NCBI GenBank assembly: GCA_030429765.1
Contig: JAUIER010000003.1
Span: 80,402-144,401, forward strand
From: a bacterium
GTDB lineage: Bacteria > Omnitrophota > Gorgyraeia > Zapsychrales > Zapsychraceae
DNA length: 64,000 nt
Direction: 5' to 3'
A model generated the notes under the pieces. The model was not told the DNA's origin. It searched no databases and saw nothing but the letters and a program-made list of their open reading frames with translations. The translations under genes and the position numbers were made by a program. Positions 46,999 to 64,000 of this stretch are shown piece by piece; the first letter of the stretch is position 1; every line of letters begins with the position of its first letter.

Positions 46999-47588
46999 CC
47001 GGCGGCCTCAAGACGGGTAAGACCACCGTGGCCAAAATGTTTCGTCGGCTCGGCGCTCATGTGATTGACGCCGACGCGATCGTGCATGAAAGTTTATCCG
47101 TGAACGGGGCATGCGTCAAAGCCGTCAAAGCTCAATTCGGGGAACGGGTCTTAACGAGGGGAGGCTCAGTTAACCGCAAGGCCCTGGCCGAGATCGTCTT
47201 TCAGGATGACTCACGCCTGCGCGACCTTGAAAAAATTATCCATCCTCATGTGCGTCGCGTGATGCGCGCGCAAATATCCGAATACAAACGGACGGATCCC
47301 GACGGGGTGATTGTTTTAGATGTTCCGCTCTTGTTTGAGTCGGGGCTCGACAAACTGGCTGACATCACCGTCACCGTTAAGGCCACAAGGGCCCTGCAGG
47401 TCGAACGGGCCATGCGGGACTTGGGGATCAGTCAGGCACAAGCATTAAAACGAATCCGGCAGCAGATGCCGATGACAGAAAAAGTCAGACGATCTGACGT
47501 CGTGATTGACAATAGATCTAGTAAATCAGAAACTCAAAAAAAGGTAAAACAAATATGGCAAAAACACCTACCAAATCCAAAGCAGTAA
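46980..47588 (+). CDS. coaE: Dephospho-CoA kinase
   Basis: Track ORF 46941 was trimmed to ATG 46980. P-loop [13 protein letters not shown] and the motif DADAIVHE. Confidence 0.9.
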
Positions 47589-48949
47589 AATCCAAGTCAA
47601 AAGAGACATCGAAAACCACCGCGGCCAAAAGCAAAAGCTCGGCGGAGAAAAAGGCGGATAAGCCCAAAGAGGCCAACGGCGCCAACGGGACGGATTCGAT
47701 TGATATCACCAGTTTGAAAGAAATGAAGATGACCGAGCTGAACAATTACGCCAAAGATCTGGGGATCACCGGAGTCAGCGGTCTTAAGAAGCAGGACTTG
47801 ATCTTCAAGGTCCTGCAGGCGCAGGCGGAACGTGAAGGTCAGATGTTCGGCGGCGGCACGCTTGAAATTCTATCAGAAGGATTTGGTTTTCTACGCAGTT
47901 CCAATTACAACTACTTACCGTGTCCGGATGACATTTATATCTCTCCGTCGCAGATCCGTCGTTTTGATCTGAAAACCGGCGACAGTGTCAGCGGACACAT
48001 CCGGCCGCCCAAAGAGGGTGAGAAGTATTTCGCGTTGCTTAAAGTGGAAGCCGTGAACTTTGAAAACCCGGAAAAATGCAAAGACAAAATATTTTTTGAC
48101 AACTTAACGCCGCTATATCCGAAAGATCGCATCCTGCTTGAAACCGAGCAGAAAGAATTGTCGACGAGGATTATGGACATGCTGACACCGTTGGGTAAAG
48201 GTCAGCGGGCGCTGATCGTGGCTCCGCCTTTCAGTGGTAAGACGGTTCTCCTGCAGAAAGTGGCCAACTCCATCATGCAGAATCAGCCGGATGTCATCCT
48301 GATGGTGCTGTTAATCGATGAGCGTCCCGAAGAGGTGACGGATATGCAGCGTAACGTCAAGGGCGAGGTCATCGCTTCAACATTTGATGAGCCGGCCGAA
48401 CGTCACGTACAGGTGGCGGAGATGGTCCTGGAAAAAGCCAAGCGTTTGGTGGAGCATCAACGTGATGTCATTATTCTCTTGGACAGTATCACCCGATTAG
48501 CGCGCGCCTATAATACGGTTGTGCCACATAGTGGAAAGATTCTCTCCGGTGGGGTTGACTCCAACGCGCTTCACAAGCCAAAGCGATTCTTTGGGGCCGC
48601 CCGGGCGGTTGAAGAAGGCGGCAGTCTGACCGTTATCGCGACGGCCCTGGTTGAAACAGGCAGCCGTATGGATGAAGTCATCTTCGAGGAATTCAAGGGG
48701 ACGGGTAACATGGAGCTGCAGCTTGACCGGAATCTGTTCCAGCGCCGTATCTATCCGGCGATCGATATCAAGCGTTCCAACACGCGTCATGAAGAGTATC
48801 TGATCCCGGATGACGATCTGCAGCGCATCTGGCTGCTGCGCAAGGCCATCAATGATCTCAATTCAGCCGAGGCGATGGAGCTGTTGATCGACCGTATCGG
48901 AAAGTACAAATCAAACAGGGAATTTCTGGATAATCTGAATAATATGTAG
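47555..48949 (+). CDS. rho: Transcription termination factor Rho with a Lys-rich N-terminal extension
   Basis: 464 aa. Motifs: [14 protein letters not shown], Walker [31 protein letters not shown]. The first ~45 aa are rich in K, S, T and A. Confidence 0.95.
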
Positions 48950-49010
48950 TCGAGATTCATAAGGCATTCGATACCAGTCATTTACGCTTTAAATTGCTGT
49001 TTGTAATAAA

Positions 49011-49038
49011 TTGTACTATTTGAGATTTGTGCTATAAT
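49011..49038 (+). promoter_or_regulatory. Sigma70-like promoter candidate upstream of rpmE
   Basis: TTGTAC (49011-49016), a 16-nt spacer, then the consensus TATAAT (49033-49038). Confidence 0.35.
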
Positions 49039-49096
49039 TGACAGTCTTAACGACAGGAGTTTAACTAAGGTGTATTCATAACCGAGGAGTAATTTG

Positions 49097-49297
49097 ATGA
49101 AAGCTGACATTCATCCTGAATATGTTGAAACGACGATTAATTGTGTTTGCGGGGCCTCGATTAAAACACGTTCCACGGTACAAAATATCCGTGTAGAGAT
49201 TTGTTCGAAGTGTCATCCATTTTTCACTGGTGAGAAGAAATTCGTTGATACCACCGGTCGAATCGAACGCTTTAAGAATCGTTACAAGAAAAATTAA
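49097..49297 (+). CDS. rpmE: 50S ribosomal protein L31
   Basis: The track start 49094 is a TTG. ATG 49097 lies 6 nt after GAGGAG. Motifs: MKADIHPEY, Cys pairs CVCG and [10 protein letters not shown]. Confidence 0.9.
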
Positions 49298-49309
49298 GAA
49301 TTTCCTTAT

Positions 49310-49329
49310 GGGCCGCATTATTGCGGCCC
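49310..49329 (+). terminator. Stem-loop after rpmE (terminator-like)
   Basis: GGGCCGCA-TTAT-TGCGGCCC is a perfect 8-bp GC-rich stem 13 nt after the stop. No clear U-tract follows (AAAGTGTG). Confidence 0.4.
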
Positions 49330-49345
49330 AAAGTGTGTATAGACC

Positions 49346-50410
49346 ATGAAGCTAGAGAAATACGAGAAACTACAGGAGCGTTTTAAAGAGCTTGAGGGTC
49401 TGCTTGCCGATCAGAATATCATCTCCGATCAAAGTCAATATCAAAAGCTAGCCAAAGAATATTCCGACATCACGCCGGTGGTCAACCTGTTCGGCGAGTA
49501 TCAGGATGTCGTGCATCAAATTGATGATTTGAAGAAGCTGCTGTCTGAAAAGCCCGACAAGGAATTTGTCGAGTTGGCCGAGGCCGAGCTGTCTGAGCTT
49601 AACGAGAAGGTCGGTCAGCTGGAAGAGGAGCTGGACGATCTCACCAATCCCAAAAAGCAGGGGCAGAATCGCAATCTGATCTTCGAGATCCGGGCGGGGA
49701 CCGGCGGTGAGGAGGCAAGCCTGTTTGCCTCGGATCTGTTCCGGATGTACTCCAAATATTGCGACAAGAAAGGCTGGGTCCTCGAACCGATCAACTCCAA
49801 TCCGTCTGAAACCGGCGGGTTCAAGGAAATTATTTTCAGTATCAGTGGCGACGGCGCGGAAAAACATTTAAAATGGGAAAGTGGCGCGCACCGGGTTCAG
49901 CGTGTTCCCGCCACCGAGGCGTCCGGGCGGATCCACACTTCTGCCGCGACGGTCGCGGTGCTGTTTGAGGCCGAAGACGTTGAGCTTGAGATCGATCCCA
50001 ATGATTTGAAAATAGATATCTTTCGTTCGTCGGGCCCGGGCGGTCAGAGTGTGAATACCACTGATTCGGCGGTTCGCATCACTCATTTACCGACGAATAC
50101 GGTTGTCATCTGTCAGGACGAACGCTCACAGCTAAAAAACAAATATAAGGCGATGCGGGTTTTGAAGGCGCGGATCCTCGACAAGATGAAACGGGACAGC
50201 ATGGAGCAGGAATCGGCCGACCGCAAGCTCAAGGTCGGCAGCGGCGACCGCAGCGAGAAGATCCGCACATATAATTTTCCGGACCGGCGCGTCACCGATC
50301 ATCGCATCGGGTTTACGTCCCACAAACTGCAGTATATCCTGGACGGTGATATGGACGAATTAACCGAGGCCCTGATTCAGGCCGAGCATGAGGACAATCT
50401 CAATGAATGA
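49346..50410 (+). CDS. prfA: Peptide chain release factor 1
   Basis: 354 aa. GGQ loop SGPGGQSVN and the RF1-type PAT tripeptide (QRVPATE). Confidence 0.95.
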   Translation: MKLEKYEKLQERFKELEGLLADQNIISDQSQYQKLAKEYSDITPVVNLFGEYQDVVHQIDDLKKLLSEKPDKEFVELAEAELSELNEKVGQLEEELDDLTNPKKQGQNRNLIFEIRAGTGGEEASLFASDLFRMYSKYCDKKGWVLEPINSNPSETGGFKEIIFSISGDGAEKHLKWESGAHRVQRVPATEASGRIHTSAATVAVLFEAEDVELEIDPNDLKIDIFRSSGPGGQSVNTTDSAVRITHLPTNTVVICQDERSQLKNKYKAMRVLKARILDKMKRDSMEQESADRKLKVGSGDRSEKIRTYNFPDRRVTDHRIGFTSHKLQYILDGDMDELTEALIQAEHEDNLNE

Positions 50411-51221
50411 ACGTGAACAAATGCTGACCTCCGTACTGAATTGCCGGCGCGTTGATCTGTATGTGGATCGCAAGGAATTGAACCCGGTCCAGCAGAAACA
50501 ATATCGTCAGATGCTCGACCGCCGCGCTCAAGGCGAACCGCTGCAGTACATCATCGGTCATTGTGAATTTCTGAACACCAAATTATTTGTCAACAAACAT
50601 GTGTTGATCCCGCGGCCGGAAACAGAATTACTCGTCGAGATGGCGGTTGAAAAGGCGCGGATGATGCCGAACCGACCGGTACGGATCCTGGATCTGGGGA
50701 CCGGGTCCGGTAATATCGCGATCGCGTTGGCCAAACGGGTGCATGATTGTCATGTTGTCTCAGTCGATATTTCCCGCGAGGCGATCATGGTGGCCACGGA
50801 GAATGCCCGCAAAAATTTTGTGGCGGACAAGACCACCTTTGTATGGTGCGATATGTTCCGCTTTTTATCTATCGACGAGGAATTGGGCCGCAAATTTGAT
50901 ATGATTATTTCCAACCCGCCGTACATCAAGGCGGGGGATATTGACAATCTGCCGAATGACGTTCAGCGTGAACCGCACATCGCGCTCAACGGCGGACAGG
51001 ACGGATTGATGTTTTACCGCGAGATTCTAAAACGCGCGCATCATTTTTTACGCGAGGAAGGGTGTATTTTATTTGAGATTGGTGAGGATCAGGCGCAGGA
51101 TATTACGCAAATATTTGAGCAGTACCCGTATTTCCGGAACACCTTTGTGTTCAGGGATTACGCGGACCGCGACCGCTTTATGTGTTCCCAGCTCTCGGCA
51201 TTGAGCGCTGTCGTCAACTAA
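50403..51221 (+). CDS. prmC: Release factor glutamine methyltransferase
   Basis: ATG 50403 (ATGAATGA overlap with the prfA stop) is preferred over the track start 50388. SAM motif LDLGTGSGNIAIAL and catalytic motif ISNPPYI. Confidence 0.85.
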   Translation: MNEREQMLTSVLNCRRVDLYVDRKELNPVQQKQYRQMLDRRAQGEPLQYIIGHCEFLNTKLFVNKHVLIPRPETELLVEMAVEKARMMPNRPVRILDLGTGSGNIAIALAKRVHDCHVVSVDISREAIMVATENARKNFVADKTTFVWCDMFRFLSIDEELGRKFDMIISNPPYIKAGDIDNLPNDVQREPHIALNGGQDGLMFYREILKRAHHFLREEGCILFEIGEDQAQDITQIFEQYPYFRNTFVFRDYADRDRFMCSQLSALSAVVN

Positions 51222-51243
51222 CCGTTACGATCACACATCATTC

Positions 51244-52506
51244 ATGGAAAAACTCGTTATTGAAGGCGGACTCCCGCTTTCCGGTGAAGTCAAAATCAGT
51301 GGATCAAAGAACGCCGCGCTGCCGATTCTCGCAGCCAGTCTTTTGACCGACGAACCCGTCATCCTCCGTAATGTCCCGATTCTGCGCGATACGACGACGA
51401 TGATCAAGCTGCTCAAGTCATTGGGTAAGATCGTTGAGATCGACGGAGACCGCGTCAAGATCACCAGCAACGGCAAGACACGTCACGTGGCGGAATACAA
51501 ACTGGTTTCGACGATGCGCGGTTCGTTTTGTGTACTCGGACCGTTGTTGGCCAAGCTCGGCAAGGCCAAGGTGTCATTGCCCGGCGGGTGTGTGATTGGA
51601 ATCCGTCCGGTCGATCTTCACCTTAAAGGAATAAAGGCGTTGGGCGCCAAGATTCAGATCGACGGCGGATATGTGATTTCCCGCGCCAAGAAGCTCAAGG
51701 GAACGCATATCTATCTCGGCGGAGTGTTTGGATCGTCCGTACTCGCGACGGCGAATGTGCTGATGGCGGCGGTGCTGGCGGAAGGCGAGACCGTGATCGA
51801 GTCGGCGGCGTGTGAACCCGAGATTGAAGATTTGAGCAATATGCTCAGGGCCATGGGCGCGCGTATTCGCGGCGTGGGCTCGCCGCGCTTGACGATTACC
51901 GGCGTAAAACGTTTACGCGGTGTTTCTTATCGCGTCATTCCTGATCGTATTGAAGCGGGAACTTATATTTTGATTGGAGCCGCAACGCGCAGCGATATCA
52001 AACTGCGCGGCGCAGATATCACCCATTTAATGGCGCTGACGGACAAGCTCAAGGAAGTCGGGGTCAAGGTCACGGCCAAGCGCGATGTCGTGAAGGTCAA
52101 ATGTAAAAAGAATTACAACCCGGTGAGTATCACGACGTATCCGTATCCGGGATTTCCGACGGATCTGCAGGCGCAGTTTATGGCGTTGATGACGATTGTC
52201 GAAGGCGTGAGCGTGATCACGGATAAAGTTTATCCGGACCGCTTTATTCACATCGCGGAATTGAATCGCATGGGCGCTAACATCCGCCGCGAAGGGATCA
52301 ACGCGATTGTGCAGGGAGTCAAAAAACTCAAAGGCGCGCAGGTGATGGCGTCGGATCTGCGGGCCTCGGCGGCGCTGGTAATCGCGGGCTTAGCGGCCAA
52401 AGGCCGGACCGAGATTCATCGGATTTACCATTTGGAACGGGGTTACGAATTATTGGATAAGAAATTGACGGCGTTGGGCGCGAAGGTTTGGCGGGAACGG
52501 GAATAG
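51244..52506 (+). CDS. murA: UDP-N-acetylglucosamine 1-carboxyvinyltransferase
   Basis: 420 aa. SGSKNAALPILAASLL and the catalytic Cys loop LPGGCVIGIRPVDLH. Confidence 0.95.
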   Translation: MEKLVIEGGLPLSGEVKISGSKNAALPILAASLLTDEPVILRNVPILRDTTTMIKLLKSLGKIVEIDGDRVKITSNGKTRHVAEYKLVSTMRGSFCVLGPLLAKLGKAKVSLPGGCVIGIRPVDLHLKGIKALGAKIQIDGGYVISRAKKLKGTHIYLGGVFGSSVLATANVLMAAVLAEGETVIESAACEPEIEDLSNMLRAMGARIRGVGSPRLTITGVKRLRGVSYRVIPDRIEAGTYILIGAATRSDIKLRGADITHLMALTDKLKEVGVKVTAKRDVVKVKCKKNYNPVSITTYPYPGFPTDLQAQFMALMTIVEGVSVITDKVYPDRFIHIAELNRMGANIRREGINAIVQGVKKLKGAQVMASDLRASAALVIAGLAAKGRTEIHRIYHLERGYELLDKKLTALGAKVWRERE

Positions 52507-52527
52507 CGACGAGATAGTGGAGCGCAT

Positions 52528-53091
52528 ATGATCTTAATGATAGACAACTACGATTCATTCACCTACAACCTGGTGCAGTATTTCGGTGAGCTGGGCGCGA
52601 ATCTCAAGGTGTACCGTAATGATATGATTTCGATTGAGGACATCCGCCGGATGCGGCCCAAAAAGATTGTGGTGTCGCCCGGGCCGAGTAATCCGGACCA
52701 TGCCGGGATTTCATTGGACGTCATCGACACGTTTAAAGGCAAGATTCCGATCCTCGGGGTATGTCTCGGACATCAATGTATGGGGCAGGCCTTCGGCGGC
52801 AAGATCATCCGGGCCAAAAAATTGATGCACGGTAAAACTTCAAAAATTAAACACGACGGCCAAGATTTATTCAAAGGCCTGGACAATCCGTTTGAAGCCA
52901 CGCGGTACCATTCGCTGGTGATCGAGCGCAAAAGCTGTCCCAAGTGTTTTGAGATTACGGCCTCGAGTGAAGACGGTGAGATTATGGGGATCCGTCATAA
53001 AGACTATCCGATGTGGGGCGTACAGTTTCATCCCGAGTCGATTTTGACCAAGGCGGGCAAACCGCTCTTGGGTAATTTTCTCAAACTATAG
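52528..53091 (+). CDS. trpG: Anthranilate synthase component II / aminodeoxychorismate synthase glutamine amidotransferase
   Basis: 187 aa. Motifs: MIDNYDSFTYNL, catalytic GVCLGHQ, QFHPES. It lies directly upstream of trpD. Confidence 0.85.
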   Translation: MILMIDNYDSFTYNLVQYFGELGANLKVYRNDMISIEDIRRMRPKKIVVSPGPSNPDHAGISLDVIDTFKGKIPILGVCLGHQCMGQAFGGKIIRAKKLMHGKTSKIKHDGQDLFKGLDNPFEATRYHSLVIERKSCPKCFEITASSEDGEIMGIRHKDYPMWGVQFHPESILTKAGKPLLGNFLKL

Positions 53092-53103
53092 GATGGGATC
53101 CAA

Positions 53104-54129
53104 ATGAGCCATACGATTCGTTCATACGTGGACAAGATCCACAATCATGAGAATTTGACGCAGGACGAGATCGAAGTTGTCATGCAGGACATCATGTCCG
53201 GCGAGTCCAACCGCGAAGATATTGCCAGTTTTTTGTTGGCGCTGCGCGAGAAAGGCCCGACGATCGATGAGATTACCGGGGCGGCCCGGATTATGCGCCG
53301 GCATCTGGTCGGCGTGAATACCGTACACAAAGATATTCTTGATACGTGCGGGACCGGCGGTGACAAGACCAATACGTTCAATATCTCGACGGTGACGGCC
53401 CTGGTGGTGGCCGGAGCGGGGGCGGTCGTGGCCAAGCACGGAAATCGGTCGGTGTCGAGTAAGTGCGGTTCGGCCGATATTCTCGAAGCGCTCGATGTCA
53501 ATCTGGATATGGATACCTCCCGTCTGAACGCGTGTCTGGACGAAGTCGGCATCGCTTTTCTGTTTGCGCAAAAACTGCATCCGGCGATGAAGAATGTCGC
53601 GCCTGTGCGTAAGGAATTGGGTGTCGAGACGATCTTTAATCTGCTTGGGCCGTTGACGAATCCGGCCAATGCCACGCATCAGATGATCGGTGTGTACGCG
53701 CGTAAATATGTCAAGCCGATGGTGCAGGTGTTGAAGAACCTGGGATCCAAACGGGCATTGGTTGTGCATGGCGCGGACGGACTGGATGAGATCACAACGA
53801 CCGACAAGACATTTATCTGTGAGTACAACGGCGAGGAGATTTTTTCGTACGATATCGATCCCGACGAATTAGGCATACCGTTCGCCAAGCCTGAAGATCT
53901 CAAAGGCGGTCATCTGGAAGACAATGTCAGAATTGTCCGCGAGATCCTCGACGGAGCGCCCGGACCGAAAAGGGATATCGTTCTGTTGAATTCGGCGTAC
54001 GCGTTGTATATCAGCGAGAAGGCGGCGAATATTGAAGATGGTTTACAGATGGCGCGTGATTCGATCGACAGTGGAAAGGCCAAGGCCAAGCTGGCACAAC
54101 TAAGGGATTTTACCCATGAGCGGACATGA
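53104..54129 (+). CDS. trpD: Anthranilate phosphoribosyltransferase
   Basis: 341 aa. Motifs: [38 protein letters not shown]-like region, LGPLTNPA. Confidence 0.95.
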   Translation: [341 protein letters not shown]

Positions 54130-54907
54130 TTTTCTGCAGGAGATCGTCGAGTACAAAAAAGAATGCAACCGCTTAAAGGCGGAGTACTACACGGCGATTC
54201 GCAACAAGATTGATCTCTCCGAATACTGCCGTTACGGGGTCTTTGCCAAGTCGGTGGGACGCGAAGGGCAGGTTAATCTGATCGCTGAGATCAAGAAGGC
54301 CTCGCCGTCCAAAGGGGTGATCCGTGAGCCGTTTGATGTGCTCGAGATCGCCAAGACATACACCGAACACAAGGCGGCGGCCATCTCTGTTCTCACCGAA
54401 GACAAATATTTTTTAGGACGACCGGATTACGTCAAGAAGGTCAGCGAACAGTTTACGGTGCCGGTCCTGATGAAGGACTTTTTCATTCATGAAAACCAGA
54501 TCTACGAGGCGCTGGTCAAGGGGGCCAGTGCGATCCTGCTGATTTGCGCGATACTCTCCGATGAGCAGTTAAAGCAATTATTGTCGGTGGCGAACGCTTT
54601 GGACCTGGACTGTCTGGTCGAGACGCATGATGAGACCGAGGTCAAGCGGGCGATTGACGTCGGCGCCGAGATCATCGGGGTGAACAATCGCGATCTACAT
54701 ACATTTGAGGTGTCGATGCAGACGAGTCTGGATTTGATCCCCAAGATTCCCCGGGATCGAATCGCGGTCGCCGAGAGCGGGATCCGGACCAACGCGGACA
54801 TTCGGCAGCTCAAAGAGGTGGGGGCCAAGGCGGTTTTAATTGGAGAAACATTTATGCGCGCAGAGGACATCGGCGCCAAGGTTGACGAGATTATGTCAGG
54901 CGGCTAA
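54116..54907 (+). CDS. trpC: Indole-3-glycerol-phosphate synthase
   Basis: 263 aa. Motifs: IAEIKKASPSKG, ISVLTEDKYF, IIGVNNRDL. Confidence 0.9.
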   Translation: MSGHDFLQEIVEYKKECNRLKAEYYTAIRNKIDLSEYCRYGVFAKSVGREGQVNLIAEIKKASPSKGVIREPFDVLEIAKTYTEHKAAAISVLTEDKYFLGRPDYVKKVSEQFTVPVLMKDFFIHENQIYEALVKGASAILLICAILSDEQLKQLLSVANALDLDCLVETHDETEVKRAIDVGAEIIGVNNRDLHTFEVSMQTSLDLIPKIPRDRIAVAESGIRTNADIRQLKEVGAKAVLIGETFMRAEDIGAKVDEIMSGG

Positions 54908-54922
54908 CACGGAGGAAGAGGA

Positions 54923-55537
54923 ATGACGATGAAAGTTAAGATGTGTGGGATTACCAATCATGAAGACGCGCAGAAGGCGGTTTATTACGGGGCCTATGCC
55001 GTCGGATTTATTTTTCATAAAAAAAGTCCGCGCTACGTATCACCGAGTAAAGCGCGAAAATTAATCGAAGGATTGCCGCCGTTTATCGTGCCGGTCGGTG
55101 TCTTCGTTGATCTCAAGGAAAAGGCGGTGCGGGATATCTGCAAGTTCACCCGGATCAAGACGGTCCAGTTTCACGGTGATGAAAAGCCGATCTACTGCAA
55201 GCGCTTTTCCGATTACAAGATCATCAAGGCCTTTCGGGTCAATGACATGTTTGATTTTGTCGGCGTCAAGAAGTACAAGGTCGACGCCTATCTGTTTGAT
55301 ACCTACCAGGAAAATGTCCTTGGGGGGACGGGAAAGACGTTCAACTGGGACCTGCTCAAAGGGCATAAGTTTGATAAACCCGTCATTCTCTCCGGCGGAT
55401 TGACCTCATCCAATGTGGCCGAAGGGATCGCCGCGGTGGATCCGTACGCCGTGGATGTCTCCAGCGGCATCGAGAAGTCGCCGGGGATCAAGGATCCCCG
55501 CAAAATCCGGGCGTTCATGAAGGCCCTGGACGTCTAA
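54923..55537 (+). CDS. trpF: Phosphoribosylanthranilate isomerase
   Basis: 204 aa. Motifs: VKMCGIT, QFHGDE, ILSGGL. An alternative start is ATG 54929. Confidence 0.9.
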   Translation: MTMKVKMCGITNHEDAQKAVYYGAYAVGFIFHKKSPRYVSPSKARKLIEGLPPFIVPVGVFVDLKEKAVRDICKFTRIKTVQFHGDEKPIYCKRFSDYKIIKAFRVNDMFDFVGVKKYKVDAYLFDTYQENVLGGTGKTFNWDLLKGHKFDKPVILSGGLTSSNVAEGIAAVDPYAVDVSSGIEKSPGIKDPRKIRAFMKALDV

Positions 55538-55978: not shown

Positions 55979-56006
55979 GTGTCTACGGTGTTGGTTCTGG
56001 TAGAAT
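55977..56006 (+). promoter_or_regulatory. Extended -10 promoter candidate for the two-gene cassette
   Basis: TGgTAGAAT (TG at 55998-55999, hexamer at 56001-56006) with a weak -35 TTGTGT (55977-55982) and an 18-nt spacer. Confidence 0.3.
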
Positions 56007-56105
56007 AGTAGGAATTAACTGCGCGGGGCTTCACGAACTTCCAATCCTGCAGCAGTTTTTCCAGTGTGATTAAGCAAGCAAAATTAAGAAATATTTCGAT
56101 TGTAA

Positions 56106-56492
56106 ATGACTAACAATTCAATATTTTCATTTCCTCCTGATTTTGAAGTGGAGTATAAATTTTTGACAGTGGACGAGGCCGGTAGAAAAACTGGAACTCC
56201 CTTTCAGGGTTACCGGAGCAATTGGCTATATGAAGGGGATGACCCAATTGCCGACGGCATTTATATGATTCATCCTGAATTTCTGGATGAAGACGGAAAA
56301 AGTTTTCAAAAGAATAGGAAGGTTCCTGCAAAAGGCCTGGCCAGAATGGTAGTAGTCAATCCAGCTAAGAGACCTTATCATCAAAAGAAAATAAAAGTTG
56401 GAACAAGAGGTTTTTTTGTCGAGGGAAATCGGAAAGTGGCAATGGCAACCGTAACGAAGGTGCTTGGTTTGCATACCAATAAAACAACTTAG
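56106..56492 (+). CDS. Free-standing EF-Tu domain III-like protein
   Basis: 128 aa. [28 protein letters not shown] and the C-terminal [23 protein letters not shown] align by eye with EF-Tu domain III, as I recall the E. coli sequence. There is no G domain and no domain II. Codon usage looks A+T-rich. Confidence 0.5.
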   Translation: [128 protein letters not shown]

Positions 56493-56542
56493 TAGAAAAT
56501 TCTCATTCCATAACAGGGATAGGATTTTTCAAAGATAATTGA

Positions 56543-57247
56543 ATGACGTATATTAGAATTTTTGCCTTGGTGCTTAGCGTTATTTTAACGGCCGGGTGTG
56601 CTACCGTTGTTCGGGATCAATTACCGGCAGTCCAAAAATTTTCGACATCTGAGGAAGCTTTCAGCGTATACGTGCTGAATCATGGATGGCATACAGGACT
56701 GGTGATCAGGCGTTCTGATATCCCTGACCATCTTTGTCCCGAAAGTGAAGATTTTGCTAAGTATGAGTATCTCGAAATTGGATGGGGCGATCAAGGTTTT
56801 TACCAGGCTCAGAAAATCACTTTGGGTATTACTATCCGGGCGATCTTTTGGCCGTCCAAAAGCGTACTACATGTGGTGGGATTTAATGGGTCAGTTGAGG
56901 CATATTTTGAAACCAGTGATATTGTACGAGTTGATCTTTCGGAACAGGGATTTAACAAAATATGCATGTTTATTCATGAAACGTTCAAGAGGGAGCAGGT
57001 TGATCTACGAGCTTCGTCTATCGGACCGGGTTTGTACGGGGATAGTAAATTCTACAGAGCTCGCGGGAGATACTACTTTCCTAAAACGTGTAATGTTTGG
57101 ACCGCAAGGGCCCTACGTAAAGGTGGTTGTCCGATAACACCTATTTACGCTGTGACATCCGGCAATACGCTGAATCAGACCAAGAAGTTTGGAGTAATTG
57201 TTAGGGAGTTCCTAGAGTCGTATAAAGCTTCAGGTAGAAAAAAATAA
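56543..57247 (+). CDS. DUF2459/TIGR02117-like lipoprotein
   Basis: 234 aa. Lipobox LTAGC. The motifs NHGWHTGLVI, LEIGWGDQGFY and YYFPKTCNVWTARALRKGGCP match my memory of the DUF2459 family. Confidence 0.55.
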   Translation: MTYIRIFALVLSVILTAGCATVVRDQLPAVQKFSTSEEAFSVYVLNHGWHTGLVIRRSDIPDHLCPESEDFAKYEYLEIGWGDQGFYQAQKITLGITIRAIFWPSKSVLHVVGFNGSVEAYFETSDIVRVDLSEQGFNKICMFIHETFKREQVDLRASSIGPGLYGDSKFYRARGRYYFPKTCNVWTARALRKGGCPITPIYAVTSGNTLNQTKKFGVIVREFLESYKASGRKK

Positions 57248-57354
57248 GTGGATGGTCGAAGTCTCTCCAATCTTGAAAGAATTGGTATCAGAAATCCCTA
57301 AAGTAAAGCAGGGCATAAGTTTAGGTCGTAATTCATTATATTAGCGAAGAGGCC

Positions 57355-57399
57355 TGTCCCTTTTCGGGGACTGTCCCCTTTGGGGGAGCCGTTCGGGCT
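57355..57399 (+). other. Cluster of three short GC-rich hairpins between the cassette and the giant ORF
   Basis: GTCCC-TTTTCG-GGGAC (57356-57371), TCCCC-TTT-GGGGG (57374-57386) and AGCC-GTTCG-GGCT (57387-57399). No U-tract follows. They may terminate or insulate the cassette transcript. Confidence 0.3.
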
Positions 57400-57427
57400 T
57401 GCCTATAATACTAATATATCGTATAAT
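57399..57427 (+). promoter_or_regulatory. Sigma70-like promoter candidate for the giant ORF
   Basis: TTGCCT (57399-57404), a 17-nt spacer, then the consensus TATAAT (57422-57427). A second TATAAT lies at 57404-57409. Confidence 0.35.
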
Positions 57428-57477
57428 TAGTGTATTACTGGTTCCCCACCGTAAGCTTTAGTTTCCACCCATAGTCT

Positions 57478-60400
57478 ATGTTGATTTCAATCAAACGGCA
57501 TTTCCGTCATCCGTTGTTTTGCGCGTTGGTGTCGATGCTGACATGTCAGTTATCATTTGCTGTCCCTGGCGTTGCGTCTACGCAAGCCTCGCAGGGAGTG
57601 GCTCTGCCTGAACCCGGCACGCTGGTGATGCCGAGCGCCGATTTTTATGCCCCGGTCCTCAAAGGGGTTCAAATCCATCCCGACCAGCCGTTTCATTTTG
57701 AATTTATTGTCGATCAGGGCGATCAGTCGATTTCCTTAAGCCAACTGGAGGCCGAGTCGTATCGCTTGATCAAATATTTTATGGCCGCCCTGGCCGTGCC
57801 TGAGCAGGACATGTGGGTGAACTTATCGCCCAATGATCATGATCGGGCGATCCCCGACAAATTCGCCCTGACCGCTATGGGACGTGATCTGCTCGCGCAG
57901 GATTATCTGCTCAAACAATTATCGGCGTCGATGATGTATCCCGAACATCGGCTTGGTGAAGATTTCTGGCAACGCGTGCGGCACTTGGCCCATCAACGCT
58001 TGGGCGTGACCGACATTCCCGTCAACACATTCAATAAAGTCTGGATCGTACCCGAACGGGCCGTGGTGTATCAAGACGGATATACCGCGTATGTGTCCGA
58101 AGGCCGGCTCAAGGTCATGCTGCAGTCGGACTATCAAGCCAGCGCATCCAGCCCGATGGGCGCGGGCAATCCCGACGATTCCACCGACCGGTTAGCCCAG
58201 GACATTTATCGTGAAGTGATTATTCCGGAACTGGAGCGAGAGGTGAATACCGGTCGACAGTTTGCCCGTTTGCGCCAGATCTATCATTCGTTGATTCTCG
58301 CGACGTGGTATCGCGAAGTCCTTGAGGACAGTTTGATCAATCAAGTGTATGCCGGACAGAATAAGATCCATGGCATTGAGATCGACGATCCCCGGGCCAA
58401 AGACGCGATCTATCAGCAATACATGGACGCGTTTCGCAAGGGCGTCTACAACTACATCCGCGAAGACTATGATCAATTGAAGGATCAGGTGATCCCGCGG
58501 CAGTACATGTCGGGCGGGATGCAGATCGTGCCGCGGATAGAGATTACCGACGACGCGCGCTCCGTCCGCACGCGCGGAGATCTGGCGATGGTCTCCACGC
58601 AACTGAATCTGCGCGGTGCCAACCGCACGATTGAGATCGCGGCGGATCTCGACGACAGTATCTTTGCCGGGATGCGAAAGAACGGCCGGCCCAAGGTTCA
58701 GTTAACGCATGCGGATCACGCCGAGCTCAAGGGATACCGTCCGGATGGAGAGACGGTCACACTTTTTACCTCACTACGTCAGCGGGTATACGGCCTGGAA
58801 ATTTCCGATGAGGGCGAACTCACGCACGTTTATCCTAACAATAAAAAAGACAAACCGGTGGCTTGGGCCTGGATTCGTGACGACGCCGGCCGGCGGACCG
58901 GAATTGTCGTCGGAGACAAGCGGACGCACGCGTCGCTGGGATACGGAACAAGTGCGGTCAAGATTAACGGGTGGATCGACACGCCGATTATAGCAAGTCA
59001 GCAGCGGCAGGACGCGGCCTTGATCCGCATCGGTCCACAGGCCCTGGGTAAACGACAACTCTTTGCGGTGTTGCCGCCGGATGCGGCCGGCGAAACATTG
59101 GCGGTGCGCTATGAAGACGGTTTTCCGACGGCAGTTCGTCTGAGAGACGGGACCGTTGTTCCTGTTGGTCTGATCCGGAATCAGTATAATCAGGTGATCA
59201 AAGCCACGAACGGTTCGGCCGGTTTTGTTAAGCCGGATCGTGAGACAGCCACCAGCTACGAAAATATCCGAACGGATGCAGAGGGCATAGCGCGTTTGGG
59301 ATTCCGTCTCGAGCGAGTGGCCGACGGGGCCGGCTGGGCCAGTCTCCTGGTTGACCAATCAGTGGTGATCGCTCATGATATTTTTGATCAGCCGCGTCAC
59401 CAAACCTACGGACACGTGATCCGCAATCACCATGATGTCATCATTGCCGCCGCGTGGCGGGAACCCGACCAAGACCAACGGGAGGTAAACCCCAAGCCGT
59501 TGATGATCGTTCGCGATCTCCAAACACACCGGCCGAAGTACTCGGCGGCACCAACCAAATTCAAAGACACCGGCGACGCGATCGTGACCGGACGTCGTTT
59601 ATCGAAACACGGCAAGATTTATATCGGCGGACATTCGCTGAGTTTGGGGGCGACGTATGCCGATGCGCCGGTGGAATTGCTATGGCTGCCCAGCCAGGGT
59701 TATCTGCTGGTCGATGTCTTAAGTGAACGTGATCGTGAGGCGTTTGTGTTTGACTTGAATCGTGACGAAACCGTCACCGCCGAACAGCTAACTCTCGTCG
59801 ACAAATACCTGTCTGAGCTTGGGCTGGAATGGTATCTGGATCCGGCAGAGAAGGCGTATCGTTATGATCTCATCAATGAGTTGATGTCGGATCCGTTGTT
59901 CGCACAGCTGAATTTAAGATTATTTTCAACGCATCCGGCGGATTTACAGACCATTCAGTCTCAGTTGACTGTGCGCCGTCACATGCCGGTCAGGATTTGG
60001 GATCAGGCCCTGGATATCGCCGCCCGACGGATCGATCAATATAAACGCGATTATCCCGATCAGGTCGTCAACGGCAAGATTCCGATGCGGATCAAGCAGT
60101 CGATCATTCGCGATGTGTCGGACGAGGCCTGGTTGATGATCAATGCCGAACGTCCGCTGACGGAGAGCCCATCGGCTCAAATCTTTGAATCGTCGTCAAA
60201 CGAAACCGATGCGGCCATGACCAGCGATGGACCCACGCGGGCTGATATCGAACGGCTGTTCAAGGCGATTCTGGAAATTTACCGGTCCTACGCCGACGGT
60301 GAATTGGAGGACTATCCCACGGCGATGCGCCGGCTGGAGGCATTGGCCGAGCAGACCGCGTCGAATCCGGTCCTGCAGAGTTTTGTCCATGACCGGAAGA

Positions 60401-63400
60401 ATCCCATCCACGTGATTGAGTTCGGACTGGATGGTCAGTTGGTGGCGCGCGATAAGCTCGCGCAGTCCCTTCAGGATGACATCCGCGATATGGAGCTGGC
60501 CCTGGCCGGACTTCGATCGCTCGACGACACCGACCCCGCCCCGGTGACGGATGCGTATCCGGCCGAGATCAAATATTTTGAGTTAATCAATAAAGGACGC
60601 GGTTCGACGGATTCAGATGCCGCGATGGCGGGTATCGATACTTTTGTGGCTGAGCGGATCACACAATTGCAGGACGCGGTGACGGAACGTGAACAGGTGA
60701 CACCCAACACGGTTCGGCATGTCGCGGGGCTTTGGCTAAAAGCCCTCATCCAGGAGTGGGATTACGGCCGGAACATCGTTCACACACGGGCCGAGGCCGT
60801 CGAGATAGGGGAACGCCTGAACCGGGCGTGGAAGGCCGCCGGGTTCGACAAGGTTCGTTCATGGCCGGCGCAGGTGATGCTCATGGGCTCTCTGCAGGTT
60901 TCGGAAGACAAGTACTTTCAATTTGAAGATATGCAGGAGGCCTTGATCGAACATGCCACGCGGGAGGAAAAGATCTTGGCTTACTGGACCAAGGCGGTGC
61001 GCTCTGTCAGTCATCTCAGATATTACGGCAATCATCCGGAAGATGAATTTGAGGATCCGCTCGTCGATCAAACCGTCATTCAGGATACGGCGCGCAAATA
61101 CATCACCTTGCTGCTGGAAGACGCGCCCGAGAAGGCCACTCAAGATCAGCTGTGGGGATTGATCGTTTTGCTCGATCCGTTCATCTATCATCCTGACTTT
61201 TTAATTGATCAGTGGGCCAAGCATGCCTATAAGCAACCCAACGATCATGTCATGACCGCCAAGGTCCTCGACATTCTGAAGGATCTCAACGCGGAACAGC
61301 GGCAGCGATTCCAACAACTCGCCCGACGGGCGTTTGCGATATCGGATGACGAATGGGCGGCGGCTGGATTCCGGTCGCCGTACACAGACTTTATCATCCA
61401 TACCTTTAATGAACGACTGGACCACATGATGACTCAGATGTCGATCAAGTCCTCGAGTGAGTTCAGCGGGGATCACGTGCAGCTGATGGCCCGGTCCGAA
61501 GAATTTTTCGACGCCCATGTGGGATGGTATGCCTTAACGCGCGATCCCAGGGCGGTGCGCGAGATGATGTTCTCCAATAAACGGCATGCCCGTTATCCGG
61601 AGGCCGGTTTTCTGGGGCTGCGTCAGGCCATCGTCAAACGGCGATTGTTCAAGGCGATGGAACAAGATCCGCGGCATTACTATCGACGGGTCTTCGCGCA
61701 TCCATTGCTGGCGGATTCACCTAACTGGGGATTTTTAAGTGAGTTGTTGAGCGACGAGGCGATGATGGCCGATCCCGATGATATGACCGAACAGTTCCGT
61801 CGACGAATTGATCTAGCCATTGCTCAGGTGGGTTATCCTGGAATATCTGTATCCGAACAGGCTGCTCAAGATTTGCTTGCTGACTATGAACAGGGTTTTG
61901 ACGTGACGGAACGGATTGCCATTCCACGGATCAGCGTCTGGCTGATGCGTCACCAGATTCCTGTGTTTCAGTCTTATGAAATGCTAGCGGCCATCCACGT
62001 CGCCGCCGACAAGTGGCGAGCCAATTTCAATCAGACAGTGGAGCTTGAGGTTGGTGCCTTGATGAGCTTTACGAATGTGGTGGGGCTACCGATGTTTGGA
62101 TTTGAAGGATCGTGGACAGATGCGGAAGTGCAGACCGTTCGACGGATTATGGGGTGGTTGGATGGGGAAAAAGTCTCTACATTGAAAGGGTTGCAAGCTC
62201 GATTGTTGACATCTTCGGTAACATTTAAAAAGCGCGGCAGGGGATTCAGAGGCATTGCGGAGATCATACAAGGGATCATGCCGGCCGGTCCCCGTATACC
62301 TGGCGATAGACGCACAAACGCGATTCAGCTCGTCGACATTGATACAAGCTGGTTTACAGGGAATATCACATTCCCGATGATTCAGATTCTCAAGGAATTA
62401 TTGCTGGATCGGACGCAGGACAAGGATGTCATTGATGAAGACTACTTTGACTCACGAATTGCGGTGTTGGCCAAGATACAAGAGTTGTTAGAGCGGCTTG
62501 TCCTTCGGGAGCAGTCATTAATTGAAAACTTTGCGACAGCCTATCGCGCGCAATTGCAGGAAGAGCGTAGAACGTTGTTGTATACATGGCTGACCATGAT
62601 GCGCGGTGACGAAGAAATTTTAGATCTGGAACCTGATGATTTGTCGCACAGATTTACACTTTCAACGGATGATGTTTTGAAGGTATTAAGAGATTACTCT
62701 GAAGAGATCGATGACCGAGATCACGCGATGAAAGCCGGTGAGGCGTTTGAGAACAATCCGTATCATGAACCGCATTTTGATCTGATTGACAATCTGGAAC
62801 TGGCCGAGCGGTCGAATATCGTGATGATCGGGGCGGCGGAAAATCCGCAGGCCGGTTTGGCCTTCGCGATGCGCGGACATCATGTCAGGTCCATCACCAA
62901 GGATATCAAGGGGCCGACCGTGGAGGCGGCGCTGCAGGAGTCACTTGAGGCCGATATTTCCGGTCGGGGCGGACGGTATGTCACCAATCGGGAGACCGAC
63001 TATCTGGATGTCGACATCGACGCCGAATCGGTGGATGTGTATGTGGTGCCGGCGGTGCTCGACGATCCGCGCACCGTGCAGCAGGATTTGATGCTGGATA
63101 AAATGCTGCGCGAATTGCGGCCGGGCGGTCATCTGGTGCTGTCGTTTATCATCAATGCGTCGGGATGGGAGCGCTATGTCGAGCGGTTCGCGGCGTCACG
63201 CGGGTTTGAACTGGAGAAGACGTATGATTATACCGTGTCGGACGCGGCGGTGATCTATCGCGTTGTGCCGGATGCGGCCAGACAGCTGGCCGCCATGGCG
63301 TCGGAGATCGGCGCGGCCAATGATGAGGCCATGCTGGCGTTCAGTGAGTTTGACAACAAGATCGGGATCGATCCATTTTCCGGTCGTTTATCGGTGCTGT

Positions 63401-64000
63401 CCGATGAGCCGGTGTTTGTGCCGGCGTTTGAGTTATGGGCGGTGCGTCACGGTGAGACCGCCGGTAATGTTCAGCGCATCTTTCAAGGGGCGACGGACAC
63501 GTCGATCAATCAGTTGAATCAACGCGGACGCGAGCAGGCCGCAGAAGCGGCGCGCCTGATGTTTGAACAGCTCGAGGCCAAACTCAGGGCCGGTGATCAC
63601 GTTGTTATATTGACCAGTGAGTTCGCGCGGGCGAAAGAGACGGCGCAGGCCTTTGTGGATTTTGTTGAGGCTCAATTGGGGGATGCATCGAACTTAACCA
63701 TCGTCGAAGATGCCGGGGTCAATGAGATTGATTTCGGCGAACTCAACAATCTGTCCGAACAGGATGAGTTAACGGATCGTCAGCGCACGTTTATCGATCA
63801 GTATCGGTATCAGAAAAACGCGCGCGCGAAACCGGCCGGCGGCGAAAGCTATCTGGAATTGACCCAGCGGGTCCACCGATGGCTCAAAGAATTGAATCAG
63901 CGCTACGCGGACCAAACCGTGGTGATGTTTGGTCACGGTACATTTTTATCGGCCGTTCGGATGTTGACGGGGGATACGTCGATGAACGACGCCAGCGGTC
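57478..64000 (+). CDS. Giant secreted multidomain protein, N-terminal >=2,174 aa (3' end outside the window)
   Basis: Hand translation of frame +1 gives TAG at 57472-57474, ATG at 57478, and no stop up to nt 64000. The track lists no frame-1 ORF here because it requires a stop. The N-terminus MLISIKRHFRHPLFCALVSMLTCQLSFAVPGVASTQA is signal-peptide-like. No Shine-Dalgarno sequence is obvious, so the exact start is uncertain. Confidence 0.8.
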   Translation, partial: MLISIKRHFRHPLFCALVSMLTCQLSFAVPGVASTQASQGVALPEPGTLVMPSADFYAPVLKGVQIHPDQPFHFEFIVDQGDQSISLSQLEAESYRLIKYFMAALAVPEQDMWVNLSPNDHDRAIPDKFALTAMGRDLLAQDYLLKQLSASMMYPEHRLGEDFWQRVRHLAHQRLGVTDIPVNTFNKVWIVPERAVVYQDGYTAYVSEGRLKVMLQSDYQASASSPMGAGNPDDSTDRLAQDIYREVIIPELEREVNTGRQFARLRQIYHSLILATWYREVLEDSLINQVYAGQNKIHGIEIDDPRAKDAIYQQYMDAFRKGVYNYIREDYDQLKDQVIPRQYMSGGMQIVPRIEITDDARSVRTRGDLAMVSTQLNLRGANRTIEIAADLDDSIFAGMRKNGRPKVQLTHADHAELKGYRPDGETVTLFTSLRQRVYGLEISDEGELTHVYPNNKKDKPVAWAWIRDDAGRRTGIVVGDKRTHASLGYGTSAVKINGWIDTPIIASQQRQDAALIRIGPQALGKRQLFAVLPPDAAGETLAVRYEDGFPTAVRLRDGTVVPVGLIRNQYNQVIKATNGSAGFVKPDRETATSYENIRTDAEGIARLGFRLERVADGAGWASLLVDQSVVIAHDIFDQPRHQTYGHVIRNHHDVIIAAAWREPDQDQREVNPKPLMIVRDLQTHRPKYSAAPTKFKDTGDAIVTGRRLSKHGKIYIGGHSLSLGATYADAPVELLWLPSQGYLLVDVLSERDREAFVFDLNRDETVTAEQLTLVDKYLSELGLEWYLDPAEKAYRYDLINELMSDPLFAQLNLRLFSTHPADLQTIQSQLTVRRHMPVRIWDQALDIAARRIDQYKRDYPDQVVNGKIPMRIKQSIIRDVSDEAWLMINAERPLTESPSAQIFESSSNETDAAMTSDGPTRADIERLFKAILEIYRSYADGELEDYPTAMRRLEALAEQTASNPVLQSFVHDRKNPIHVIEFGLDGQLVARDKLAQSLQDDIRDMELALAGLRSLDDTDPAPVTDAYPAEIKYFELINKGRGSTDSDAAMAGIDTFVAERITQLQDAVTEREQVTPNTVRHVAGLWLKALIQEWDYGRNIVHTRAEAVEIGERLNRAWKAAGFDKVRSWPAQVMLMGSLQVSEDKYFQFEDMQEALIEHATREEKILAYWTKAVRSVSHLRYYGNHPEDEFEDPLVDQTVIQDTARKYITLLLEDAPEKATQDQLWGLIVLLDPFIYHPDFLIDQWAKHAYKQPNDHVMTAKVLDILKDLNAEQRQRFQQLARRAFAISDDEWAAAGFRSPYTDFIIHTFNERLDHMMTQMSIKSSSEFSGDHVQLMARSEEFFDAHVGWYALTRDPRAVREMMFSNKRHARYPEAGFLGLRQAIVKRRLFKAMEQDPRHYYRRVFAHPLLADSPNWGFLSELLSDEAMMADPDDMTEQFRRRIDLAIAQVGYPGISVSEQAAQDLLADYEQGFDVTERIAIPRISVWLMRHQIPVFQSYEMLAAIHVAADKWRANFNQTVELEVGALMSFTNVVGLPMFGFEGSWTDAEVQTVRRIMGWLDGEKVSTLKGLQARLLTSSVTFKKRGRGFRGIAEIIQGIMPAGPRIPGDRRTNAIQLVDIDTSWFTGNITFPMIQILKELLLDRTQDKDVIDEDYFDSRIAVLAKIQELLERLVLREQSLIENFATAYRAQLQEERRTLLYTWLTMMRGDEEILDLEPDDLSHRFTLSTDDVLKVLRDYSEEIDDRDHAMKAGEAFENNPYHEPHFDLIDNLELAERSNIVMIGAAENPQAGLAFAMRGHHVRSITKDIKGPTVEAALQESLEADISGRGGRYVTNRETDYLDVDIDAESVDVYVVPAVLDDPRTVQQDLMLDKMLRELRPGGHLVLSFIINASGWERYVERFAASRGFELEKTYDYTVSDAAVIYRVVPDAARQLAAMASEIGAANDEAMLAFSEFDNKIGIDPFSGRLSVLSDEPVFVPAFELWAVRHGETAGNVQRIFQGATDTSINQLNQRGREQAAEAARLMFEQLEAKLRAGDHVVILTSEFARAKETAQAFVDFVEAQLGDASNLTIVEDAGVNEIDFGELNNLSEQDELTDRQRTFIDQYRYQKNARAKPAGGESYLELTQRVHRWLKELNQRYADQTVVMFGHGTFLSAVRMLTGDTSMNDASG
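62815..63270 (+). other. Methyltransferase-like Rossmann module inside the giant ORF
   Basis: NIVMIGAAENPQAGLAFAMRGHHVRSI ... VDVYVVPAVLDD ... MLDKMLRELRPGGHLVLSF follows the class I SAM-methyltransferase motif order, but the glycine-rich motif I is atypical. Confidence 0.4.
63412..64000 (+). other. Histidine-phosphatase (phosphoglycerate-mutase-like) module inside the giant ORF
   Basis: ELWAVRHGETAGNVQRIFQGATDTSINQLNQRGREQA, ILTSEFARAKETA, NEIDFGELN, GGESYLELTQRV and VVMFGHGTFL appear in this order. The RHG codons are at 63445-63453. Confidence 0.7.

Follow-up and report, generated by a model that had tools for sequence, protein, structure and literature searches.

Giant genes have been described in the Omnitrophota before: open reading frames (ORFs) of more than 20 kb are reported from the phylum (PMC10066038), its proteins of more than 30,000 amino acids (aa) have been termed 'Archaeovorins' (bioRxiv 10.1101/2023.11.21.568195, West-Roberts et al. 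2023), and 'multi-enzyme metabolic clusters' appear in a catalogue of proteins that reach 10,000 aa or more (bioRxiv 10.64898/2026.06.07.730766, Nielsen & Lui 2026). The long Omnitrophota proteins of the two preprints carry methyltransferase, NUDIX, kinase, and similar domains and mostly have signal peptides or transmembrane helices (bioRxiv 10.1101/2023.11.21.568195; 10.64898/2026.06.07.730766). Here we analyze a modular gene at the end of a 64,000-nucleotide (nt) stretch of DNA (GenBank assembly GCA_030429765.1, contig JAUIER010000003.1, positions 80,402 to 144,401), referred to throughout as the window. The gene encodes a protein of 2,263 aa, P0001, in which a preliminary description had seen a methyltransferase-like module fused to a histidine phosphatase behind a signal-peptide-like N-terminus. 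Judged by sequence comparison, P0001 is one member of a large, highly paralogous, and near-exclusively Omnitrophota family of modular proteins, and the overall reading that we consider probable is that of an exported protein whose conserved ends enclose independent, exchangeable enzyme cargo.

This family and the published giants have in common their phylum, the presence of methyltransferase, NUDIX, HATPase_c, radical SAM, HEAT, and phosphomannomutase domains on one chain, and an association with signal peptides or membranes. As those reports present them, the giants measure at least 10,000 aa or are encoded by genes of more than 90 kb and have many transmembrane helices and C39, S8, and SecA domains, whereas P0001 has 2,263 aa, no internal transmembrane segment, and, in a Pfam search, no detectable C39 or S8 peptidase or SecA-like domain. 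It also lies outside the size class of the 'Archaeovorins' (gene >90 kb, protein >30,000 aa, numerous transmembrane helices). The three elements that recur in the family, an N-terminal domain (N-domain), a C-terminal tail (C-tail), and the motif D-x-A-M, are not mentioned in the sections of the two preprints that were consulted, nor did term searches of them bring these elements up. Full-text searches aimed at a family of 1,000–4,000 aa proteins with these elements found no description of one, although other sources or newer domain databases may contain it. Its architecture seems to represent an undescribed variant of the long multi-enzyme proteins already known from this phylum.

A family with conserved ends and variable cargo

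A search with the whole protein scored 8,000 candidates, and the top 120 proteins (P0001 and 119 relatives) were analyzed in detail. More than 2,500 of the scored candidates were significant database matches, the best of them 1,200–3,700 aa long, and wherever these best matches carried a taxonomic label it was Omnitrophota or Omnitrophica, with one Desulfobulbaceae exception. Similarity is limited to ~15–18% of the query, namely its first ~370 residues, at 42–58% identity. This segment comprises a signal-peptide-like presequence (aa 1–39, nt 57478–57594; like all features of the gene, on the forward strand), recognized by a hydropathy scan and by features shared with the relatives, and the family-defining N-domain (aa 40–371, nt 57595–58590), which ends at the first D-x-A-M (GDLAM). 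Module-wise BLAST detected the N-domain (~330 aa) in all 119 relatives; its motifs include WVNLSP..., LKQ, NKVWI, LRQ, and FSGG, and it has no detectable relative in Pfam, NCBIfam, or the Protein Data Bank (PDB), the last by fold comparison with a moderate-confidence model. Across an alignment of 27 N-domain sequences, S117, D142, K146, K187, E255, and R266 do not vary.

The opposite end of the family is marked by the C-tail, which spans ~60 aa (aa 2198–2263 of P0001, beyond the window), follows the pattern GGIDx...G.xPVIxxIxP...LLG, and was found in 89 of the 119 relatives by BLAST and in 112 of the 120 proteins with a hidden Markov model (HMM). GTDB species representatives supplied an independent set of 65 complete ORFs of at least 700 aa, of which 60 end with the tail, positioned a median of 12.5 aa ahead of the stop codon. 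The P0001 tail has no match in Pfam or NCBIfam at E≤10 and no PDB relative, and none of 25 family tails matched the curated models of sorting signals (T9SS CTD, PEP-CTERM, GlyGly-CTERM, LPXTG, and similar).

Between these ends the cargo of the relatives, as assigned by Pfam, is diverse and includes NUDIX, canonical methyltransferase, radical SAM, NDK, PGK, pyruvate kinase, UbiB kinase, and GNAT domains, together with HATPase_c, response regulators, HEAT, WD40, phosphomannomutase, acyl-CoA dehydrogenase, and glutamate dehydrogenase. A genome scan covering one genome per species (GTDB species representatives) confirmed at least 585 loci that encode an N-domain relative. Of these, 80 were kept, whose titles are mostly Omnitrophota or Omnitrophica, with ~20 'uncultured Planctomycetales', one Elulimicrobium, and one Bacteroidales bin. 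Multiple paralogs occur per genome, as in assembly JABDGZ01 with seven loci. The 80 loci contain 94 N-domain matches (L082 and L066 are examples), so that in some genomes two family members lie within about 10 kb of each other. A cluster of ORFs of ~169 aa on the opposite strand, found within the first ~10 kb at L026 and 16 other loci, is assumed to be an antisense shadow of the N-domain coding sequence. No conserved neighbor genes were found around the 80 loci except the rho-trp synteny of four of them, described below.

Extent and modules of the gene

The ORF of P0001 (nt 57478–64000, frame 1) begins with an ATG at nt 57478, one codon past an in-frame stop, and stays open for 2,174 codons to the window end. 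The database protein is 100% identical to it and places the end of the gene 89 aa further on; the window thus holds aa 1–2174 of 2,263, and the last 89 aa, with the C-tail, lie beyond it. The same gene with its stop codon is present in two independent 7-kb read-set assemblies (contigs L001 and L002), and the sequence past the stop codon covers 221 nt. A continuation past the window end had been anticipated in the preliminary description, and the strings quoted there are all present in frame 1: NIVMIGAAENPQAGLAFAMRGHHV at aa 1780 (nt 62815), VDVYVVPAVLDD at aa 1852, LRPGGHLVLSF at aa 1880, and RHGET at aa 1990.

Seven D-x-A-M copies, at aa 368, 911, 1047, 1426, 1748, 1949, and 2194, all stand between modules and split P0001 into the N-domain, four unassigned modules, a methyltransferase-like module, a histidine phosphatase module, and the tail. 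The first copy (nt 58579–58590) comes just after the N-domain, the following ones occupy nt 60208–60219, 60616–60627, 61753–61764, 62719–62730, and 63322–63333, and the last lies beyond the window. Module 1 (aa 372–910, nt 58591–60207) has no Pfam match and is common only to P0003, P0009, and P0010 among the 119 relatives, and module 2 (aa 915–1046, nt 60220–60615) has no match in Pfam or among these relatives. Module 3 (aa 1051–1425, nt 60628–61752), likewise without a family assignment, is matched in seven of the 119 relatives. It is doubled inside the close relatives P0002 (aa 367–707 and 877–1254) and P0005 (aa 372–726 and 883–1260); modules therefore duplicate within proteins as well as swap. 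Module 4 (aa 1430–1747, nt 61765–62718) is found in none of the 119 and yields a single sub-threshold match, to DUF488-N3a (aa 1641–1709, nt 62398–62604; E=1.9e-4, 22.1 bits against a cut-off of 27).

The ~1,380 aa of modules 1–4 without family assignment might be taken to mean that separate genes were falsely joined into one ORF during annotation or assembly, or that the ORF is a decaying pseudogene. We give this explanation next to no credence, as the 2,263 codons run without a frame break, the sequence is identical in the NCBI contig and the two independent read-set assemblies, and the N-domain and C-tail stand at opposite ends of the ORF, as in 60 of 65 complete relatives.

The D-x-A-M junction motif

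Across the 120 proteins D-x-A-M was observed 311 times against 26.8 expected from shuffled sequences (12x); 68 complete ORFs from GTDB species representatives, which form an independent set, contain it 79 times against 10.9 expected (7x). It lies within 80 aa past the N-domain core in 85 of 182 proteins and within 40 aa ahead of the tail in 53 of 172, compared with 3.3% by chance. None of the 20 copies in five proteins checked falls inside a Pfam envelope, and in both AlphaFold2 (AF2) models the motif is located in the low-confidence ends. The DNA at these sites is conserved in its codons (GAY NNN GCS ATG) and no further, which gives no hint of a recombination signal at the nucleotide level. 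The motif may serve as a hinge or a processing site, or may be a recombination scar.

A branch-1 histidine phosphatase

The last module of P0001, module 6, occupies nt 63334–63999 in the window (aa 1953–2174) and ends at aa 2193. Pfam His_Phos_1 (PF00300) matches it at aa 1986–2161 (envelope nt 63433–63960) with 100.3 bits against a gathering cut-off of 21.7 and E=1.4e-28, which bears out the histidine phosphatase of the preliminary description and its placement after the methyltransferase-like module. The catalytic set is complete, with R1990/H1991 (nt 63445–63450), R2051 (nt 63628–63630), E2083 (nt 63724–63726), and H2153 (nt 63934–63936). In an alignment of 22 histidine phosphatase modules from family members these residues are invariant or at least 90% conserved; the histidine of the RHG motif and the second histidine, whose loss would have spoken against the assignment, are both kept. 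The nearest solved structures are PhoE (1ebb/1h2e, E=4e-8), then CobC and PspA.

On profile and active-site evidence, module 6 is a genuine PhoE/CobC-like branch-1 histidine phosphatase, and it looks catalytically competent. It aligns end to end with the enzymes of this type (PhoE 1ebb/1h2e, CobC 6nru/6e4b, PspA 4ij5) and shares their RHG motif, second Arg, Glu, and second His. It differs from them in its family-specific N- and C-terminal extensions, in being one unit within a 2,263-aa signal-peptide-bearing protein, and in scoring below every NCBIfam equivalog cut-off. The CobC, RNase H/acid phosphatase, PspA, GpmB, and dPGM models all align to it, the best being CobC (68.6 against 162.9 bits), and all fall far short of the score that would name a specificity. 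The superfamily is certain on these grounds and the specificity is not. Module-wise BLAST matched module 6 in 21 of the 119 relatives, while a word-index homolog search with the module alone returned one weak match.

A divergent predicted methyltransferase fold with a rebuilt cofactor loop

Module 5 (aa 1752–1948, nt 62731–63321) precedes the phosphatase. Sequence profiles do not place it significantly in any methyltransferase family: Pfam Methyltransf_11 reaches E=0.018–0.037 (15–16 bits against 21.2), the NCBIfam ArsM and CpaM models give E>0.01, and phmmer against the PDB finds at best NodS at E=0.63. A profile built from a small clade alignment (with P0002–P0005) aligned along the entire domain with phosphoethanolamine N-methyltransferases (E=0.03); the matches to PfPMT and NodS are weak. 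Support comes from the predicted structure. An AF2 model computed on the clade alignment (predicted local distance difference test, pLDDT, 80.6; predicted template-modeling score, pTM, 0.78) has alternating beta and alpha elements, and the top 50 Foldseek matches in the PDB are all class I S-adenosylmethionine (SAM)-dependent methyltransferases, with E down to 1e-7 and TM-scores of 0.5–0.58; 543 matches have E≤0.001. The model, the weak profiles, and the clade alignment together support a divergent class I methyltransferase fold with a rebuilt SAM loop. The methyltransferase claim of the preliminary description, for which structure prediction and profile searches had been proposed as checks, is thus upheld as a predicted fold and not at the level of sequence profiles, where Methyltransf_11 is not significant.

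In common with the class I enzymes (PfPMT 4r6w/3uj6, NodS 3ofk, Bud23 4qtu), module 5 has a predicted seven-strand Rossmann-like fold and a recognizable motif IV/V region (VLDDP..., LRPGGHL), with motif IV VDVYVVPAVLDDP at nt 63031–63069 and LRPGGHLVLSF at nt 63115–63147. It departs from them in a remodeled motif I, in the non-significant HMM match and modest TM-scores given above, and in its distribution, the clade numbering fewer than ten representatives, all inside long modular proteins. The loop had already been called atypical, and it is: at nt 62827–62856 it reads IGAAENPQAG instead of GxGxG. In the clade alignment it takes the form M-I-G-[AS]-A-E-[NT]-P-Q-x-G, in which two residues are inserted by comparison with PfPMT and Met rather than an acidic residue stands before the first Gly, so that M-I-G-A-A-E-N-P-Q-A-G departs from the glycine-rich E/D-x-G-x-G-x-G form of motif I.

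Module-wise BLAST matched module 5 in four of the 119 relatives (P0002–P0005, 37–40% identity). A phmmer search against 1.84 billion representative proteins returned nine matches, comprising the protein itself, P0003, P0005, P0122–P0126, and one leucine-rich repeat (LRR) protein, with no canonical methyltransferase among them; a word-index search with module 5 alone found nothing, itself included. The LRR protein, P0121, was set aside, since its 10 short matching stretches lie in repetitive leucine-rich sequence and were judged spurious. P0122 (7,094 aa), P0124 (3,397 aa), and P0125 (3,833 aa) hold distant relatives of module 5 within other long signal-peptide-bearing proteins, from which the N-domain, the C-tail, and D-x-A-M are all absent; the motif is therefore specific to the family with N-domain and C-tail, and modules of this type occur outside the family as well. 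A derivation of module 5 from the canonical methyltransferases of a syntenic relative (P0006, see below) was considered and rejected, as hhalign gave a probability of 3.4% and aligned the strand 4–5 region alone.

Module 5 may have kept the fold and lost SAM-dependent catalysis, acting as a binding or structural unit, and we regard such a pseudo-enzyme as quite possible, if not what we favor. The G-A-A-E-N-P-Q-A-G loop with its two-residue insertion, the Met in place of the acidic residue preceding motif I, the scores of every methyltransferase HMM below cut-off, and the mere nine relatives in 1.84 billion representatives would all be expected of one. On the other side, the variant loop, D1809 (close to where strand 2 ends), and NVLDDPxT are invariant in the small clade and (nearly) invariant at 26–40% identity, and the more distant relatives retain G-T-G in a V-G-T-G-T-D-P loop. 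D1809, the candidate for the acidic residue that contacts the SAM ribose in class I enzymes, aligns with the Asp of 'GIDI' in PfPMT, in a weak alignment (E=0.03). The invariance of loop, D1809, and NVLDDPxT in the alignment indicates selection on the putative pocket rather than decay.

Modules 5 and 6 as independent cargo

The modular gene lies downstream of a rho-prfA-prmC-murA-like-trpG-trpD-trpC-trpF block (nt 47555–55537, forward strand), identified by Pfam and by synteny to Omnitrophota metagenome-assembled genomes (MAGs); the gene is separated from this block by an unassigned ORF of 128 aa (nt 56106–56492) and a DUF2459 gene (nt 56543–57247). The order rho-prfA-prmC-murA-trpGDCF followed by a family member recurs at four Omnitrophota MAG loci (L003, L005, L011, and L076), the upstream proteins of which are 44–96% identical to those of the window (Rho 96% in L003); synteny and identity together therefore place the window in the Omnitrophota. 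The two ORFs between trpF and the modular gene have no match at the four loci.

At all four loci the family member keeps the N-domain, at about 53–55% identity, and carries unrelated cargo: a protein kinase domain in L005 (over 3,694 aa), WD40 propellers in L011 (over 3,693 aa), HATPase_c in L076 (1,119 aa), and the order unknown-HP-MTase-MTase-MTase (HP, histidine phosphatase; MTase, methyltransferase) in L003, which is of the P0006 type. Module 5 is present at none of the 80 loci and the window's histidine phosphatase module at L003 alone. P0006/L003, named 'histidine phosphatase family protein [Candidatus Omnitrophica bacterium]', shares with P0001 the position downstream of trpF, an N-domain of about 52–55% identity, the C-tail, and a His_Phos_1 module of 40% identity, and differs from it in missing modules 1–5 and in its canonical methyltransferases. 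Since the cargo differs even at one syntenic locus, modules 5 and 6 are independent and exchangeable; the locus comparison shows them, as far as such evidence reaches, to be cargo units rather than a coupled bifunctional enzyme.

A dedicated bifunctional enzyme, in which the two modules act sequentially on one substrate, for example by methylation and then dephosphorylation, is in our view highly unlikely. The two modules do adjoin, and methyltransferase and His_Phos_1 domains occur together in five other members (P0006, P0007, P0008, P0012, and P0013), the syntenic L003/P0006 included. In these members, however, the order is reversed, with the phosphatase before the methyltransferases; other modules intervene, and the methyltransferases are canonical ones unrelated to module 5 by the hhalign comparison above. 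Co-occurrence of the two domains has p=0.07, and 0.30 after close relatives are collapsed, in a sample biased toward phosphatase carriers because the query contained this domain. The nearest module 5 relatives, P0002–P0005, pair it with NUDIX or with nothing and never with His_Phos_1, and in P0001 itself a D-x-A-M junction stands between modules 5 and 6. The picture of a singular fusion of two coupled modules, from which the preliminary description had started, gives way to one of thousands of Omnitrophota paralogs with varied enzymes between N-domain and C-tail, in which same-locus counterparts carry unrelated cargo and the pairing does not exceed chance. Within its family, the methyltransferase-like/phosphatase fusion is ordinary.

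Proposed export and site of action

The N-terminus of P0001 has a basic n-region, a hydrophobic core of ~18 residues at aa 12–30, and a c-region of small residues, with the conserved domain starting at about aa 40. Among the 108 relatives whose N-terminus is complete, 93 likewise combine a basic n-region and a hydrophobic core with an AxA-like site no more than 14 aa from a conserved LPxPG. The signal-peptide-like N-terminus noted at the outset is thus both present and conserved, and these data support a conserved Sec-type signal sequence, called heuristically from hydropathy and charge features and not with SignalP. A hydropathy scan of P0001 found no further transmembrane-like segment besides the mildly hydrophobic tail, and internal hydrophobic segments are absent in 73 of the 120 proteins. 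According to the positive-inside rule, a net-positive n-region puts the bulk of a protein outside the cytoplasm; P0001, with such an n-region, would therefore be placed there. Much of the family's cargo needs SAM, ATP, or Fe-S clusters, which are not expected in the periplasm or medium, and the site of action would therefore be on or in another cell. A host-dependent or predatory lifestyle, with which such a site would fit, has been proposed for the Omnitrophota (PMC10066038).

We propose that P0001 may be exported through Sec, that the N-domain and C-tail would be handles, shared across the family, by which the protein is targeted, anchored, or secreted onward, and that its enzyme modules would act outside the producer's cytoplasm, likely at the surface or in the interior of a partner, host, or prey cell. 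In this setting the phosphatase might remove phosphate from a small phospho-metabolite or a phosphoprotein, and the methyltransferase-fold module might methylate a substrate or merely bind a nucleotide-like ligand. At the D-x-A-M junctions the chain could be hinged flexibly or processed. We infer export, and action on a host or prey, from the N-terminus and the cofactor needs of the cargo; the modification of an extracellular or host/prey substrate suggested in the preliminary description would fit both.

The main rival to export is a membrane-tethered cytoplasmic scaffold, in which an uncleaved N-terminal anchor would hold the enzyme string on the cytoplasmic side of the producer as a fused 'metabolon'. 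It would account more simply for a cargo that consists mostly of enzymes with cytoplasmic cofactors (SAM-dependent methyltransferases, kinases, NDK, PGK, pyruvate kinase, radical SAM enzymes, response regulators), and the locus lies among housekeeping rather than secretion genes. We nonetheless consider the scaffold unlikely, because the net-positive n-region is followed, after the core, by an AxA-like site in 93 of 108 relatives, and because a tail conserved at the very C-terminus is seen more typically in proteins that are sorted or secreted.

Several observations weigh against an exported protein with exchangeable cargo. The signal-peptide call rests on a heuristic rather than on a dedicated predictor or experiment, and typical cytoplasmic cargo (radical SAM, NDK, PGK, pyruvate kinase, acyl-CoA dehydrogenase) is hard to reconcile with passage through Sec as unfolded chains unless it refolds in another cell. 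Neither the genes directly upstream nor the neighbor survey of the 80 loci revealed secretion machinery, a protease, or an immunity gene linked to the locus, and the N-domain and C-tail are without any assigned function. D-x-A-M is frequent and not universal, being replaced by D-x-A-[LIV] or [NS]-x-A-M, and the ends of internal homology blocks are enriched near it by 2–2.5x and no more. For module 5, the methyltransferase assignment fails every sequence cut-off, and the hhalign comparison with the canonical methyltransferases of the syntenic relative points the same way.

A more far-reaching form of the export reading is a phylum-specific system of effector delivery. The N-domain and C-tail would here form an export/translocation or self-processing apparatus, cleavage at D-x-A-M would free the enzymes into host or prey, and cargo cassettes would be swapped between paralogs, even at fixed loci; P0001 would then be a polyprotein delivering a phosphatase and an atypical methyltransferase-fold protein. 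We put this forward as a rather long shot. The MARTX toxins of Vibrio offer an analogy: they have conserved N- and C-terminal regions around exchangeable effector domains, with processing sites between the domains, and they lack an N-terminal signal peptide, leaving the cell by the type I route of secretion. The likeness is limited to conserved ends and swappable modules, with no sequence relationship; P0001 differs in its N-terminal signal peptide, called as described above, and a Pfam search detected neither glycine-rich repeats nor a cysteine protease domain in it. No known toxin domain, such as would be expected in a polymorphic toxin system, was found in P0001, Ntox8 reaching E=0.13.

Genomic surroundings

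The window is otherwise an ordinary chromosomal stretch that encodes, among others, IF-2, PolA, PurA, SerA, RseP, and glycogen synthase. Neither an Rfam scan nor a tRNA scan of the window gave any match. Between nt 1 and 57247, 54 of the 64 ORFs of at least 150 aa lie on the forward strand, including all with a Pfam assignment, and the 10 on the reverse strand all overlap longer forward-strand ORFs. This strand bias is unusually strict, and GC skew is positive in all 2-kb bins across the window. The lowest GC content (0.448) is found at nt 56001–58000 and may mark a local insertion. One ORF of 697 aa (nt 490–2583) joins a GT4/GT1 glycosyltransferase to a family 9 (heptosyltransferase) domain, and a gene for a type II/IV secretion ATPase (T2SSE) is located at nt 24102–25370.

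Implications

The Omnitrophota are widespread and almost uncultured, and are thought to depend on or prey on other cells. Attention has so far gone to their giants of 10,000–150,000 aa, whose size and poor conservation put them beyond the reach of study. The family described here is more tractable, having members of 1,000–4,000 aa, more than 2,500 database proteins, several paralogs in each genome, and conserved ends that could serve as search handles, and its cargo modules could be expressed singly, with the phosphatase as a ready test case. This makes it suited to testing in what way the Omnitrophota put enzymes to use beyond their own cells. If the ends are indeed export or processing elements, a catalogue of the cargo would amount to a direct list of what these bacteria deliver outside the cell; if they remain inside it, the proteins would be an unusual case of housekeeping-type enzymes fused on a large scale. 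In current annotation, a name like 'histidine phosphatase family protein' covers one bead of the string and overlooks the architecture.

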